64,000 nucleotides of DNA, taken from positions 96,001 to 160,000 of the IMG/VR virus record IMGVR_UViG_3300011217_000001; one strand, written 5' to 3'. Origin of the DNA: a virus. Taxonomy: Duplodnaviria > Caudoviricetes. The position numbers and the translations under genes were made by a program. Below are positions 19,498-52,216 of the stretch, in pieces. Below the pieces are notes generated by a model, which was not told the origin of the DNA, made no database searches, and saw nothing but the letters and a program-made list of their open reading frames with translations. Position 1 is the stretch's first letter; the number at the start of each line of letters is the position of its first letter.

Positions 19498-20166
19498 TTA
19501 TGCGTCGTTCTGCTTCAGCGTGAGAATGTCCCACACGTCAGCTCTGGTGCGATGGCGCTGATGAAGCTTGTGCTCCCACTCGATCTTGCCACCCTTCAGA
19601 CCAGTGGTGGTCAGGTCGGTCAACTGACTGGAGGAAAGAGGCGTCCAGTCCATGCCCTGGAGAGCAACTATGGTAGCGGTCTGATAGATCGCCGGCATCG
19701 GATCAGGGGTGAGCAGGTCAGCCGGGAACATGGTCAGGAACTGGCCCTGCAAACCGATGAACAGCTCGTGCACTCCGCCAAGGTTGACGAAGCTACCGAT
19801 GTGCTGGACTTCACCCTTGTCATCCCAGTCGCCGCGAATCCGGTACAGCTTGGTCGGAGTCAGGACGAAGAAGTCGATTGCGTTGTGGCGGATCTTGCCC
19901 TTGTCGAACATGGGTAGTTCTGCCAACGGCGCTGCATCGAGCAGGCCTTCGTTGATGGCCTCAGCGAAGTCATGCGCTCCATGGAAGATCGGTTGCTCGG
20001 GGATGTGCAGCGATCCCACTGCGTAACCGGCGGCAACGATTGCCTCACCATGGAACTTGAAATCATCCTCGCCCCGACGATGGTACAAGGCGCTGATGTT
20101 GATGGATTGAATCGGGGCCACGATTCGCGTAGCCCCACCATCGTTCTTGATGTAAATCAGACTCAC
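19498..20166 (-). CDS. Hypothetical protein, possibly degenerate Ntn-fold paralog
   Basis: 222 aa, ATGA-coupled to upstream HslV-like gene. Confidence 0.6.
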   Translation of the reverse strand: MSLIYIKNDGGATRIVAPIQSINISALYHRRGEDDFKFHGEAIVAAGYAVGSLHIPEQPIFHGAHDFAEAINEGLLDAAPLAELPMFDKGKIRHNAIDFFVLTPTKLYRIRGDWDDKGEVQHIGSFVNLGGVHELFIGLQGQFLTMFPADLLTPDPMPAIYQTATIVALQGMDWTPLSSSQLTDLTTTGLKGGKIEWEHKLHQRHRTRADVWDILTLKQNDA

Positions 20167-20852
20167 GGAGAAACTCCCAGACGCTCGTAGAGCTGCGTGT
20201 TGTCGGTCCTGCGCCTACCACCCATCAGAACCCTGTCTTTGCCGTCAGCAGCCCCTGTGAAGCTGATACAGGCACTATGTAGGGCTTGGGTGATTGCAGC
20301 ATCGGAATTGAGGATACTGAAGGCCGTAACCAGCGGACCATTCTTCCCTTGCGGGTTCATGGTGACGCCAATCAACGGACCTCCTGCATTGGGATACATC
20401 TTGCATACCAATGCGGTTACTTCCGGTGCTTTCATCGAGGTGCGCTTGAGCAGCTTCATTGCAAACGAAGCCCCCGAGCCCATGGCGAACGGAGCGTCCA
20501 CCGACTGGATGCTCATCTTCACACCCTTGTAGGATGCGAGGTAGAGACCATTGACGGTGAGGATCAGCAGCTTCCCAGGCTTGGCATTGAATGCCTTGAA
20601 CTTGGAGGACTGGACGGCCAGCTTGCGCAACTTACCCTGGATGAGGTAGGAGAGCATGAACTCACTTGTCTTCACGTTACCGCAGCGGGCAGCTGCGATA
20701 ACCTTGGCACTTTCGAAGACCACTTCCTTGTCCGCCAGCGAGACCAGCTTGGGGTGACTGTCGTTGGTCTTGACAGCCACGCCAGAACGGATCGTGCTGC
20801 GTCGTGAGTCACCGACCAGCGTGAGATCAGAGTCGACGACTACGATACTCAT
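20163..20852 (-). CDS. HslV/proteasome-beta-like Ntn hydrolase
   Basis: M-SIVVV...GDSR, FAMGSGASFA, C-terminal GG motif. Confidence 0.6.
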   Translation of the reverse strand: MSIVVVDSDLTLVGDSRRSTIRSGVAVKTNDSHPKLVSLADKEVVFESAKVIAAARCGNVKTSEFMLSYLIQGKLRKLAVQSSKFKAFNAKPGKLLILTVNGLYLASYKGVKMSIQSVDAPFAMGSGASFAMKLLKRTSMKAPEVTALVCKMYPNAGGPLIGVTMNPQGKNGPLVTAFSILNSDAAITQALHSACISFTGAADGKDRVLMGGRRRTDNTQLYERLGVSP

Positions 20853-39878: not shown

Positions 39879-40484
39879 TCAGTGACTTCCCCAGACTTGC
39901 CCGGCCTGCGACTGGAAGTCCATACGGATCAGTGAGCGATCGTGATACATCCACACAGTGAATGCTCCTTTCACGTCACTCGGTTCAAGCCACATCTCAA
40001 CTCCGGTACGGAACAGCGCGTACAGGAAACGACGCATGGCAGCCCCATGACTGTACCACTTACGTTCATCAGGCCCAGCGCCCCCACACCACTTCTCAAC
40101 TTCCATCTTGAATGGTTCGTCAGAACTGGTCGGGGAGTAGACAATCGCCTTCTCGTGCCGGGGCGGCATGTCACCCTTGGTATTGACAAGAGTAACGTTG
40201 AGCACCTTGAGCATGTCCATACTGCCCAGACCATGCAAACTCAGGAACCACATACGACGCCCCGGTACACGCAGGTTGTGGTAGATGTGGGTCGAATAGC
40301 TGGTGGGCTTATAGAAGTACTCGGCAAAGCGCATGAACAGTGGCGCAAACCACATCGGCAGTTTCTCCGACATCAGTGTCCGGAGAAACTCTTCCTGTCG
40401 CCAGAGGACGTCCACGGGGAGGTCGGCCATCCAGCTTGCGGAGTTTACAACGATGTGACGTTGAACTTGGCTCTTCTTCTTCAT
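39879..40484 (-). CDS. Hypothetical protein
   Basis: 201 aa, coupled. Confidence 0.6.
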   Translation of the reverse strand: MKKKSQVQRHIVVNSASWMADLPVDVLWRQEEFLRTLMSEKLPMWFAPLFMRFAEYFYKPTSYSTHIYHNLRVPGRRMWFLSLHGLGSMDMLKVLNVTLVNTKGDMPPRHEKAIVYSPTSSDEPFKMEVEKWCGGAGPDERKWYSHGAAMRRFLYALFRTGVEMWLEPSDVKGAFTVWMYHDRSLIRMDFQSQAGQVWGSH

Positions 40485-40957
40485 TCGTCGCCGCTCTCAT
40501 CCACGAACTCGTTGGTCAGATCAAATCCGATAATGCGCTGGATCTTCGACCAACGTACCCCTTCGCCAGTTGGACTTGGTTCGGTACGCCCAAAGAAACG
40601 CATGGCCAGAATGACCACGTCATCGACATGGTTGTCCAGATGTTCGACCATTGCCTGGCCCATCGGACCGGTGGGTTGGATGATCCCGTAGATGGCATCC
40701 TCACGGATATCCACCGACACGACTGCCAGGGCTACCGACAAGTCGTTGATGTATCCCTGTCGATGAATGCGCTCGGACATGGACATGCGTTCGCTGATCA
40801 GGGGTGGTCCGTATTCACCACGGATCAGATTGTTGGTCAGCCGCTCCTTGAAAGGCAGGCCAATATCTTCGTTGAAGAACTCATCGAACACCTGTTTACT
40901 TACGCCGTTGTTCTCATCGAACTTCAGCAGACGTGCTGCGTACTGCTTGGTTTCCAC
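40481..40957 (-). CDS. Prohead protease (phiKZ gp175/S80)-like paralog, probably inactive
   Basis: LIRGEYGPP, GIIQPTGPMG, LAMR, IIGFD; His and Ser positions substituted. Confidence 0.6.
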   Translation of the reverse strand: METKQYAARLLKFDENNGVSKQVFDEFFNEDIGLPFKERLTNNLIRGEYGPPLISERMSMSERIHRQGYINDLSVALAVVSVDIREDAIYGIIQPTGPMGQAMVEHLDNHVDDVVILAMRFFGRTEPSPTGEGVRWSKIQRIIGFDLTNEFVDESGDE

Positions 40958-44424: not shown

Positions 44425-44949
44425 TTATTTGACTACCTTCAGGAAAGGTCGGCCTTGGGTCTTGCTGGGGGTTTCCTTGGTGGGAAGCTTGCCAGCGTTG
44501 AGGTTTTCAATGTACTCGTTCAGAGCCGGGTTGTTACCCAGCGACATGCCCCTGCCGGACTCTTCCAGCATGAACGCCGACAGAATCGAATCGACGTCGA
44601 CGATGGCATCGAAGTGTTCGCCCTTGGAACGCGCAGAGAACAACAGCAGACTCACCGGGTCGTGCGGCTGCGGGTCGTCACCTTCACGGTAGAAGGTCAG
44701 ACCACGCGTAGCCTGCTCGCCGAGGTTCAGGACGATGATGGAGATCTCCGCACCCGGAGTACCGTCATCGTTCTCCAGTCGCTGTTTCTGGACCGGCAAC
44801 GTACTGGGCAGCTGATTGCCTTCCCAGTTGGCGACGATGCAGATATGGGGCGATCCACCCATGGCGAAGATCCAGTTGTACAGACCTTCGATGACGAAGC
44901 CGGCAGTGCCGATGTGCGGGTTGATCTGGTTATCACTACGCTTATTCAC
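44425..44949 (-). CDS. sspB: SspB-like ClpXP adaptor
   Basis: GLYNWI...PHI, IVLNL..A...L, FSAR..G, E.GRGM, C-terminal RPFLKVVK; GTG start after GGAG. Confidence 0.8.
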   Translation of the reverse strand: MNKRSDNQINPHIGTAGFVIEGLYNWIFAMGGSPHICIVANWEGNQLPSTLPVQKQRLENDDGTPGAEISIIVLNLGEQATRGLTFYREGDDPQPHDPVSLLLFSARSKGEHFDAIVDVDSILSAFMLEESGRGMSLGNNPALNEYIENLNAGKLPTKETPSKTQGRPFLKVVK

Positions 44950-48833: not shown

Positions 48834-49637
48834 TTAGCTCAGCTCGGGCGTGGTGCCAGCTTGTTCCTGCGCCTTCTCGGCGATGTATTTCTCGTGCCAG
48901 TCCGAGAGCTCGACGATGAAGACACCTTCTTCACCCAGGAAGTAGCCGGCTTCGCGCAGGAGACGCTTCTGGACAGCCATCTCCTGGGTAGCCATGTACA
49001 GCTTCAGGGTGATCGGCCATTCGGAAACCGGCACGGAGTTGTTGGGCTCGTTGCCGCAGCGCAGCTTCAGTTCCTGCTTGATGATCTGCTCGATCATGTC
49101 ATCGAAGCGCGGTTCCTTGAAGTTGACCGACTTCAACCACTTGCCCTTCAGGTAGACCTTACCGTCGGTGCCGGTGACGGTTTCGGTGACCTTGGTGACG
49201 TAGACCGTTTCACCCTGGTATTCCTTCTTGATGAAGAAGGTTTCCACGCCCAGGCGGGTGTACTTGGTGCGGGTGTCCAGCAGGTCATCCATGTTCTTGT
49301 CGAACTTGGAGAACTGGCTTTCGTTCACCCGACGCAGCACTTCGGCAGCATCGAAGCCGTAGCGGCCGGCCAGGCCGATGATGGTGAACAGGCCATCGCC
49401 CACGCCGTCGATGATCTCGTGCAGGTCGTTGGCAGCGATGCCGTCGCGCAGCTCGTCCACTTCCAGATCGATGATATCCATCTGGTGCTGCGCGGAGCGG
49501 TGGCCCTGCTTGCGCACATTGCCGGCCAGCTCGTTGATGGCGTAGACCTGCTCGAACATCTTGGAGGCGATGGAGAGGTGCATCGCATCGGAGGCGATCT
49601 TGGGGGACATGGGCTTGGTGTTGTTGTCGGCGTTCAT
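48834..49637 (-). CDS. MazG-like all-alpha NTP pyrophosphatase (DR2231/dUTPase-type)
   Basis: EVDEL...EIIDGVGD, VNESQFSK, DGKVYLKGKWLKS. Confidence 0.75.
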   Translation of the reverse strand: MNADNNTKPMSPKIASDAMHLSIASKMFEQVYAINELAGNVRKQGHRSAQHQMDIIDLEVDELRDGIAANDLHEIIDGVGDGLFTIIGLAGRYGFDAAEVLRRVNESQFSKFDKNMDDLLDTRTKYTRLGVETFFIKKEYQGETVYVTKVTETVTGTDGKVYLKGKWLKSVNFKEPRFDDMIEQIIKQELKLRCGNEPNNSVPVSEWPITLKLYMATQEMAVQKRLLREAGYFLGEEGVFIVELSDWHEKYIAEKAQEQAGTTPELS

Positions 49638-49645
49638 GGGCTTGC

Positions 49646-50932
49646 TCAGTTGGCCTTGGTGATGTGACGCAGGAGGGAACGCTCGAACAGCTTGCTCAGA
49701 GCGCTGTCTTCGGCGACGGGAGTGCACTGGCCCCAGACCAGTACGGAGGTTTCCTTGCCGAGTGCGGACATGGCAACCACCTCGGTGAACGGCAAGTCCA
49801 TGAACGGATGGTCGTCATCCAAGGAAACTTCGCCGTGACGCAGGGCTTCGTCGATCAAATCAGCAGCGCGTTCCGGGGTCAGAACGAATGCGCTGTTGTC
49901 GCCGTATGCGCCGGCGTCGGTGATGGTCCAGCGGTTGGTTTCCGGATCACGCTTGATCGTGCGAGCGATCTGGCAGCTGCAGTAGGCCGACTTACGCTCC
50001 CACTTCAGGTCGTAGCCTTCGATCTGGATATGGAAGCCCTTGACGGTGGCCAGTGCGTGGACCAGATATTCCACCGCATCCGTGCGAGTGTTGATCGGAG
50101 TACCACCACGAGCCAGCTTCGGGCCGAGACTGGTCTTGCCGGTAGCACCTTCGAACAGGTACTTCTCGATCTGCCCCTGCTCACCCATGGTGCAGTTCTG
50201 GCGCATCGTGGAGTAGAGGATGTTGAAGATCTGCTGGTTCCAGGTCAGGCGATCGAAGAACTCGGGGTTCTCTGCAGCCTTCAGGACCATCGCGCAGCGC
50301 TTCTCTTCCACCAGGCGATAGAAGCCGTACTTACCGGTCTGGCGCATGCGTTCCTGCTGCTCGCCGGTCAGGTTGTTCACATCGACCACTTCACCGTCAA
50401 TGGTGAAGGTGCTGGGGCCGTGTTCCATGTCGATCTTCGGGAAGACGTACTTGGTCGCACTGGTGAGGATCTCGAAGCCGCTTTCCAGGACACCGCGCGG
50501 ATCAGGCGGAGTGACGGCGCTGACCTTGAAGCCTCGTTCGATCGGACCAACATCCGCCTTGACGTTGACGTCGAAGCTGGAAGGGTCAGGGAAAATGCCC
50601 AGGCTGTTGAAGCGGCTGCTACCGCGCATGCCTTCGCTGTCACGGTAGACGTCGACGGCCAGAGTCTGGAACGGCTTGCCGGCTTCGCCGTACAGCGAAT
50701 GCGCCTTCACCTTGACGGTGTGGTTCTTCAGGTAGTCGGAGATGATCGCCAGTGCATCATGGCGGACGTAGAAGTTGCCGTGGACGAGGATCGGATCGGT
50801 GTCGATCTTCTCGCCGGGCTCGTGGCTGATCAGCTTCAGTACTTCTTCCAGCACGCTCGGTGGTTCACCGTCCAGCAAGAACAACAGATGCTGGATCAGG
50901 TTGGTTTTCTGTTCGTGGGACAATTCGGACAT
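49646..50932 (-). CDS. Hypothetical protein
   Basis: 428 aa from MSELSHEQ. Confidence 0.7.
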   Translation of the reverse strand: MSELSHEQKTNLIQHLLFLLDGEPPSVLEEVLKLISHEPGEKIDTDPILVHGNFYVRHDALAIISDYLKNHTVKVKAHSLYGEAGKPFQTLAVDVYRDSEGMRGSSRFNSLGIFPDPSSFDVNVKADVGPIERGFKVSAVTPPDPRGVLESGFEILTSATKYVFPKIDMEHGPSTFTIDGEVVDVNNLTGEQQERMRQTGKYGFYRLVEEKRCAMVLKAAENPEFFDRLTWNQQIFNILYSTMRQNCTMGEQGQIEKYLFEGATGKTSLGPKLARGGTPINTRTDAVEYLVHALATVKGFHIQIEGYDLKWERKSAYCSCQIARTIKRDPETNRWTITDAGAYGDNSAFVLTPERAADLIDEALRHGEVSLDDDHPFMDLPFTEVVAMSALGKETSVLVWGQCTPVAEDSALSKLFERSLLRHITKAN

Positions 50933-51034
50933 TGGACTTGCTCTTCCAAGTGAATAAGGTTTGTACATACCACTGACCCCGGATTTTAAATTTGACAGCA
51001 TAGAGCAGGAGGCCGAAGCCCCCTGCCTAGCTGA

Positions 51035-51436
51035 TTACTTGACGATGAACAGCGCCGGTCGTTTGCCACGCTCGGGCTTCTGTCGAGGACGATCCAGATA
51101 CATCGGATCATCGTAGAGGTCTTCTTCGTCGATCAGGTCGTTGTCAAACCGGATCATACCGTCATCGCCGCGATAGCCCACACGGTAGGCTACGCTGTTG
51201 TGGAAGTTGACCACGCCTACGATAACCACAGCAACAGCTGCATCGGGCAGATCTTCAGGCTTGGGGTTCACGTTGCCCATGAAGATACCCATCCATGCGT
51301 CGTCACCGATGCTGTACTTGGCTTCGCGGGTGTTGGCGAAGATCTCGGCAGGACTGAAGGTGAAAATCTCCTGCTTGCTGATCAGCACCTGAGCTTCGGC
51401 CTCTACGGCCTCAAACTCGTTTTCAAAGTCACTCAT
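51035..51436 (-). CDS. Hypothetical acidic protein with SspB-like ClpX-binding tail
   Basis: C-terminus RGKRPALFIVK. Confidence 0.65.
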   Translation of the reverse strand: MSDFENEFEAVEAEAQVLISKQEIFTFSPAEIFANTREAKYSIGDDAWMGIFMGNVNPKPEDLPDAAVAVVIVGVVNFHNSVAYRVGYRGDDGMIRFDNDLIDEEDLYDDPMYLDRPRQKPERGKRPALFIVK

Positions 51437-51804
51437 TACTTGCTCTTCTTGTCTTCGGTAAGAACCGGAGGCGCGATGCCATACTTGGCAAATGCTGCCT
51501 CGATGATTGCCCGGTTGGCCTTGTACCAGTATTGCCAGGCTTCGATGATGTCCCCGCGCGCCACAGCCTCGGCGTTGTTGGGGAGCATCACTGCCGCGAT
51601 GTCGCTGAGCTTGGGCTCACGCCCCTTGCTGCCAACCGGAATCGGTTGCAGTTCGGGACGTACCTTCATCATCTCATCAGTTACCTGCGGCAGGTTTTGC
51701 TGCGGGCTTGGGCTTTTCGAGCGATTGGTTGTACAGCCGAGCAAGCCCAGCAGTACCAGCGCTAGCAACGTCATCAGACGGACCGATGCTTTTGCGGATT
51801 TCAT
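51436..51804 (-). CDS. Outer-membrane spanin (Rz1-like lipoprotein)
   Basis: Lipobox LLGLLGC, Pro-rich linker, overlaps i-spanin 3' end. Confidence 0.7.
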   Translation of the reverse strand: MKSAKASVRLMTLLALVLLGLLGCTTNRSKSPSPQQNLPQVTDEMMKVRPELQPIPVGSKGREPKLSDIAAVMLPNNAEAVARGDIIEAWQYWYKANRAIIEAAFAKYGIAPPVLTEDKKSK

Positions 51805-52216
51805 TGATCAACTCCTCCTTTTCCTTGACCTTCTGTTCAGAGGCCAGCAACTTCAGGCGCAGTTCGGCCATCAGTTCCTTTTGCCCCACGTCCACTTCCC
51901 CGGCGACCTTTTCGCCGGAGCTGATCCAGTCCCCGTAGTCCTGCTTGAACTTGCGCAGCTCTTCGGATGTTTCCTTCAGCTGTCGGTTGGCTTCGGTCAG
52001 TGCAACCGTATCCAACTTGAGCTGGGCAGCGGCACCGCGATCGTAGATGTGATCGTAGATGCGCATGACGCCCATGACCAGCCCGTAGGCGATTGCAGCG
52101 AGGATTACCAGGGCGAGGATCTTCTTCCAACCGCCCTTGATGAACCAGGTCACCGCCTTGCCGAGTTTGACGCCGATTCCAATTGCAGTCACCATATCAA
52201 GTCCTCCCATTGTCAT
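51677..52216 (-). CDS. Inner-membrane spanin (Rz-like)
   Basis: N-terminal TM segment, coiled coil, ARLYNQS end motif. Confidence 0.7.
   Translation of the reverse strand: MTMGGLDMVTAIGIGVKLGKAVTWFIKGGWKKILALVILAAIAYGLVMGVMRIYDHIYDRGAAAQLKLDTVALTEANRQLKETSEELRKFKQDYGDWISSGEKVAGEVDVGQKELMAELRLKLLASEQKVKEKEELINEIRKSIGPSDDVASAGTAGLARLYNQSLEKPKPAAKPAAGN

Follow-up and report, generated by a model that had tools for sequence, protein, structure and literature searches.

A tail resembling the ClpX-binding peptide of SspB on an unrelated small acidic protein of Xanthomonas jumbo phages: a candidate ClpX-tethering adaptor

Results and Discussion

The 133-aa protein and its C-terminal tail

We analyzed a 64,000-nucleotide stretch of DNA (the window), corresponding to positions 96,001 to 160,000 of IMG/VR virus record IMGVR_UViG_3300011217_000001, from a phage (Caudoviricetes) with a genome of 230,357 bp that is closely related to Xanthomonas oryzae phage Xoo-sp14, for which LucasX is the published closest neighbour (PMC9009655). 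The minus strand of the window encodes at 51035-51436 a 133-amino-acid (aa) protein, the target of this study, whose C terminus resembles the ClpX-binding (XB) peptide of the protease adaptor SspB. The gene is real and strongly conserved. Its product is not a member of the SspB family and most likely works like SspB; we read it as a phage-made ClpX-tethering protein, most likely an adaptor with a new cargo-binding domain, and assign this reading a probability of about 0.42. The gene and its parts are as follows.

51035-51436, minus strand: 133-aa target gene, barrel plus C-terminal XB-like tail; orthologue of Xoosp14_61, LUCX_191 and RTH11 WJJ55000
51326-51436, minus strand: acidic N-terminal arm, residues 1-37; in the LucasX lineage and that of a 296-kb contig a further domain of ~95 aa stands in its place
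51107-51325, minus strand: predicted SH3/Tudor/KOW-type small beta-barrel, residues ~38-110; G44, W48, I72, Y84 and G87 invariant; low-confidence model, Z 4-5.2
51068-51106, minus strand: linker rich in Pro and Arg, residues 111-123; its length and sequence vary, and it is modelled with low confidence
51038-51067, minus strand: XB-like tail, residues 124-133; P127, L129 and V132 invariant across four lineages

The C terminus, RGKRPALFIVK, is identical at 8 of 11 positions to that of E. coli SspB (RGGRPALRVVK, MG1655 record), and the differences include a conservative I for V and an F for R at position -4. The XB peptide of SspB binds the ClpX N-domain (PMC3983244), and its complex with the zinc-binding domain is PDB 2DS8 (as cited in PMC12373786). 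A scoring matrix built from 39 distinct bacterial SspB C-terminal 7-mers gave the target tail 13.4 bits, within the 11.8 to 22.7 bits spanned by bacterial SspBs, and 7-mers scoring as high occur at a frequency of about 3 in 100,000 in three phage proteomes. Among the 240 called genes of the phage the tail ranked second, behind the phage's own SspB (19.9 bits) and ahead of a third gene at 3.6 bits, and of all open reading frames (ORFs) in the genome only two, the target and the phage SspB at 44425-44949, terminate in a loose XB motif. The tail fits the XB motif P-x-L-[KRT]-x-[VI]-K except for the F at -4. KRP-[FHR]-LRVVK is the ending of five SspBs from the Xanthomonadaceae-type genomes searched, and four of these share GKRP with the target.

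The original prediction, made from the DNA letters alone, had described a small acidic beta-rich domain, a linker and RGKRPALFIVK, and had called the last a near-perfect XB tail on a non-SspB protein. The first description is borne out by the ORF, by a strongly acidic isoelectric point (pI) of 4.4, and by a layout that runs from the acidic arm through the predicted barrel and a linker, acidic and later Pro/Arg-rich, to the tail; the second holds as well, the tail scoring in the bacterial range on a protein whose folded part has no SspB-family match. A flexible linker between domain and tail is also present, with a predicted local distance difference test (pLDDT) score below 50 at residues 110-133 and with variation in both length and sequence.

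Conservation of the gene and of the tail

The target is 94% identical to hypothetical protein Xoosp14_61, and across its close relatives identity is 91-94% with an invariant tail, in whose codons only synonymous changes occur. Compared with three close relatives, the gene has a ratio of nonsynonymous to synonymous substitution rates (dN/dS) of 0.044-0.065 at dS 0.66-0.98, which is the lowest among ~28 neighbouring genes in all three comparisons. Because the whole protein is under the strongest purifying selection among its neighbours, the barrel surface is constrained too, as expected of a partner-binding domain. The ATG start codon overlaps the stop codon of the upstream gene (TAATG), a promoter and terminator scan of the gene strand found no sigma-70 promoter and no T-tailed terminator, and no paralogue was found in the genomes of the window's phage, LucasX and RTH11. 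Just 3' of the stop codon, at 51005-51026 on the minus strand, lies a GC-rich hairpin with a UUCG loop and without a T run, for which the terminator scan made no call.

A full-library search recovered a 211-aa protein (P0007) at 30% identity to the target on the 296-kb phage-like contig, and through it further family members were reached (P0009, LucasX LUCX_191 and RTH11 WJJ55000), placing orthologues at 23-30% identity in three further jumbo-phage lineages (LucasX, RTH11 and the 296-kb contig). All of the distant orthologues keep a P-x-L-x-x-V-[KR] C terminus behind a variable linker, the endings being RPRLQVVK in the 296-kb-contig lineage and RPQLSIVR and KPKLSVVR in LucasX and RTH11. A tail that was not conserved had been named in the original prediction as evidence that would count against it; P, L and V are in fact invariant across the four lineages. 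They make up three of the eight invariant columns of the family, the other five lying in the folded core, and mean between-lineage pairwise identity is 0.54 for the tail, 0.30 for the core, 0.16 for the linker and 0.15 for the N-terminal arm. The orthologue also has the best XB-like terminus of all called genes in LucasX (1 of 295) and in RTH11 (1 of 338). Because the tail is conserved in this manner, above both barrel and linker, a ClpX tether is well motivated on sequence grounds.

Searches of Ralstonia phage FLC4-3B, Erwinia phage AH06 and three Xanthomonadaceae-type genomes found no family member, and IMG/VR and metagenome searches returned none beyond the known lineages. In the longer orthologues an extra N-terminal domain of ~95 aa, which matched nothing in either the window's genome or RTH11, is followed by NVVQFADF or NVCSLIDF (P0007 residues 80-90, P0010 residues 86-97), segments that resemble a second tail type, that of the LucasX and RTH11 SspBs.

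The folded domain

Searches of Pfam, PHROGs, NCBIfam and PDB sequences gave no match for the target, and Pfam gave none for any of seven family members. An SspB identity of the folded part was ruled out: neither Pfam nor NCBIfam detected the SspB domain (PF04386/PRK11798) in the target or its orthologues, whereas the phage SspBs do match PRK11798, and a profile comparison with the phage SspBs gave 0.1%. An AlphaFold2 model built on five alignment rows, with the LucasX and RTH11 rows left out, placed strands at 46-51, 66-78, 81-89 and 95-97, with disorder from residue 110 onward; a domain-only model reached a pLDDT of 39. Structure searches with the low-confidence model returned mostly SH3/Tudor/KOW/chromo-type barrels, none standing out (best Z 5.2). 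With four to five strands and a short helix before the last strand taken to define a small beta-barrel, the folded part is probably such a barrel, of no named family and modelled at low confidence, and we propose it as a partner-binding domain.

HspQ (5ycq) was matched by the same low-confidence model at Z 4.5 (root-mean-square deviation 3.0, 57 residues aligned), tied with many other barrels, and no relation to the YccV-like family was detected by hhalign to E. coli HspQ (probability 0.7% over 11 columns) or by Pfam. Atlas feature matches were all below 0.9 (DUF3104, DHFR_2), and Atlas shape matches all had a template modelling (TM) score below 0.45 by query. A 2400-aa protein with cadherin repeats (P0006) was rejected as a relative, the match being compositional.

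A putative adaptor and its alternatives

The tail probably docks on the zinc-binding N-domain of ClpX, in the adaptor groove, as that of SspB does. In the mechanism we propose, a tail peptide copying the XB of the host SspB would dock on the N-domain of host ClpX, the SH3-like barrel would bind a specific host or phage protein, and the bound protein, held at ClpXP, would be unfolded or degraded; the target may be expressed late, because its gene lies directly behind spanin genes. An adaptor is favoured because the barrel is constrained as tightly as the tail among close relatives, because the layout copies that of SspB (domain, linker, tail; PMC8138137), and because SH3-like barrels occur in other AAA+ protease adaptors, HspQ and PDIP38 (PMC7647994). 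Support also comes from the score and rank of the tail in three proteomes, from the retention of P, L and V while the linker diverges, from the phage sspB downstream in four lineages, and from the GKRP common to the target and host-family SspBs. In the synthetic degraders termed CLIPPERs, a fusion of XB with a bait suffices for degradation of an untagged protein in E. coli (PMC12373786). Only tentatively, and with some doubt, would we extend this to a natural targeted degrader, for which Xanthomonas jumbo phages would have joined the peptide that docks on host ClpX to an SH3-like binder of unrelated origin, with the effect that a particular host protein (e.g., one acting in defence) is removed or a late step of the phage cycle is timed, as one case of a wider habit of XB tails on unrelated viral proteins. 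As a candidate role, the phage may redirect or block host ClpXP via the target.

Several points weigh against the adaptor. Position -4 is F, Q, S and S in the four lineages, compared with K, R or T in 39 of 39 sampled bacterial tails, and in LucasX and RTH11 the tail has a terminal R and reaches only 4.8 and 6.5 bits, under the bacterial range. The fold call depends on a single model (mean pLDDT 57, core 58-73) and on Z scores of 4-5, and XB-like ends on unrelated viral ORFs indicate that the motif is not exclusive to adaptors. A complex prediction with X. campestris ClpX residues 8-64 (two copies, two Zn) and target residues 100-133 scored 0.17 and 0.11, short of the 0.32 mark, but the controls were unfolded and the result is evidence neither way.

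The alternative that survives best, which we nevertheless judge unlikely, is a role away from ClpX, with the tail an exposed terminal beta-strand that serves self-assembly or docks on a different protein of phage or host (e.g., of the spanin/late operon) and its likeness to XB convergent. The consistent lack of a basic residue at -4, the change of the terminal K to R in two lineages and the similar ends on unrelated viral ORFs would fit such a role, as would the fact that no conserved linkage is tighter than that to the spanin gene; in the model, moreover, the tail runs partly along the barrel (aligned range to residue 133), although at pLDDT below 50. Convergence, however, would have to account for a match that extends to spacing, terminal position and the upstream [RK]-P, here GKRP as in host-family SspB, and for a target-family tail that is top-ranked in three proteomes, and even without the tail the barrel pattern seems to be complete by residue ~110.

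An improbable alternative is that the tail tethers the target itself to ClpXP, rendering it short-lived or remodelled, while the barrel does a separate timed job in nucleic-acid or protein binding. XB on eGFP does cause a steady, slow, ClpXP-dependent loss of the fusion (PMC12373786), and the substrates UmuD, MuA, lambda O and FtsZ make direct contact with the ClpX N-domain (PMC3983244); nucleic acids and RNA polymerase are common partners of small barrels, as in the structure matches. Yet a pI of 4.4 disfavours nucleic-acid binding, phage proteins can use simpler pore degrons, and the layout follows that of an adaptor, not of a substrate. Less probable still is a decoy or competitive inhibitor that would occupy the N-domain and block the degradation that depends on it (e.g., of FtsZ, or of antitoxins that hold an anti-phage defence in check until they are lost). 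Free XB peptide does slow the turnover of FtsZ, of lambda O and of substrates delivered by SspB (PMC3983244), as well as that of the antitoxin MqsA (PMC8808172), and CmdTAC defence fails without ClpX (10.1101/2024.02.24.581848). Inhibition in the peptide studies, however, used 10-150 micromolar peptide, the strong selection on the whole barrel would be left unexplained in a bare decoy that would not need it, and the phage retains an SspB homologue with its own tail, which suggests that ClpXP is used rather than blocked.

Comparison with known systems

As an adaptor, the target would resemble SspB (E. coli, Xanthomonadaceae; PF04386, PRK11798) in its folded domain, flexible linker and C-terminal [RK]-P-x-L-x-x-V-K tail, but differs in having a barrel instead of the SspB domain and a non-basic residue at -4. 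Phage SspB homologues (pf16 gp18, PMC5587285; RAY gp039, 10.1101/2023.02.24.529968; Xoosp14_69) are thought to engage host ClpXP, and one lies near the target in four lineages; they have the SspB fold, however, and only the tail in common with the target. HspQ/YccV (Lon) and PDIP38 (mitochondrial CLPX) likewise place a small SH3-like barrel in a protease-regulating role (PMC7647994), but HspQ has no detectable sequence relation to the target (hhalign 0.7%), and PDIP38 docks via the barrel itself, whereas the target would dock via its tail. CLIPPERs have the same design of XB anchor, linker and binder and are synthetic, the target being a candidate natural counterpart (PMC12373786). Jumbo-phage ClpS and ClpP are also a phage co-option of Clp proteolysis but are whole captured host genes for ClpAP, and no XB-tailed orphan domain is described in the portions consulted (PMC7824862).

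Phage SspB, ClpS and ClpP genes are already published. The literature searched, whose coverage was incomplete, contained no description of the target protein or of a phage XB tail joined to a non-SspB domain; known ClpX adaptors are few, and the phage cases in that literature are captured SspB or ClpS genes. If the adaptor reading is true, an XB tail on an unrelated binder would mean that a portable docking peptide lets phages make adaptors of their own, a design recently engineered as bacterial degraders, and would provide a route, open to direct testing, by which jumbo phages that are crop-biocontrol candidates take over the host or counter its defences. The XB tail is a simple screen for further such proteins.

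XB-like ends on other proteins

The DNA pattern for R-P-x-L-x-V-V-K-stop gave 9 matches in IMG/VR, compared with 2 and 0 for scrambled patterns, all small numbers. Two of the nine are SspBs, most others end unrelated ORFs, and none belongs to the target family. Unrelated viral ORFs with such ends, including one terminase-small-subunit-like and one resolvase-like (named by eye), hint at a recurrence of XB-like ends among other viral proteins and warn that the motif by itself does not make an adaptor. ORFs of this kind lie at L170:9972-10250, L178:3861-4562, L173:1004-1336, L175:1235-1411 and L177:1042-1305, and some may be chance occurrences. A 332-aa ORF of a Xanthomonadaceae-type genome (L165/L167, G025:C1 ~971700-973100) ends in KPPLRVVR behind a Gly-rich linker, and the same ending occurs several times nearby.

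Genomic neighbourhood

Two features of the window accompany the target gene.

51436-52216, minus strand: overlapped two-component spanin-like pair directly upstream of the target, with a membrane anchor and coiled coil at 51677-52216 and a lipoprotein at 51436-51804
44425-44949, minus strand: phage SspB homologue with its own XB tail (GRPFLKVVK), matching NCBIfam PRK11798, 6.1 kb downstream of the target; context, joint action being only a candidate

In all four lineages the target gene directly follows the spanin-like gene or genes (in LucasX with a predicted terminator between the spanin gene and LUCX_191), and a phage sspB lies 2.2-6.5 kb downstream of the orthologue with dCTP deaminase further on. 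The spanin gene, sspB and dCTP deaminase are the only neighbours kept near the target. The proposal in the original prediction of an undescribed proteostasis-hijacking system, comprising SspB, an HslV-like pair and a dead head protease, found no support; the components other than SspB do not travel with the target. The head protease, a Peptidase S80 paralogue at 40481-40957, is itself real (Pfam E 3e-6; 30% identity to another copy in the same genome), but in LucasX and RTH11 its matches are more than 150 kb away from the orthologue; GEYGPP and LAMR stand where the catalytic His and Ser are expected. The HslV-like pair at 19498-20852 had no relevant Pfam match and lies 30 kb from the target; an N-terminal Ser and GDSR are visible there, as in a possible Ntn-hydrolase-like pair.

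The spanin loci show an architecture switch between the window and LucasX, RTH11 and a further locus, L009. A single ORF of 225-240 aa in the latter three (L012:14236-14913, L017:8130-8810 and L009:9270-9992, respectively) matches both window ORFs at 51436-52216; its +1 frame contains a short lipobox ORF in RTH11 and L009, and the lipoprotein frame of the window carries a C-terminal segment that belongs to the membrane-anchored subunit in RTH11 and L009. The sspB genes of LucasX (L012:17917-18483) and RTH11 (L017:12493-13032) encode proteins without the gamma-type tail, ending instead in V-x-x-x-x-D-F-R or V-x-x-V-D-F-R plus basic residues, a pattern that resembles the alphaproteobacterial SspB tail; in both phages the best gamma-type tail sits on the barrel protein. 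A search of the genome for Pfam Tubulin gave no match. The gene at 48834-49727, annotated only as hypothetical in Xoo-sp14, encodes a MazG-like nucleotide pyrophosphohydrolase (PHROG 671, E 7e-18).
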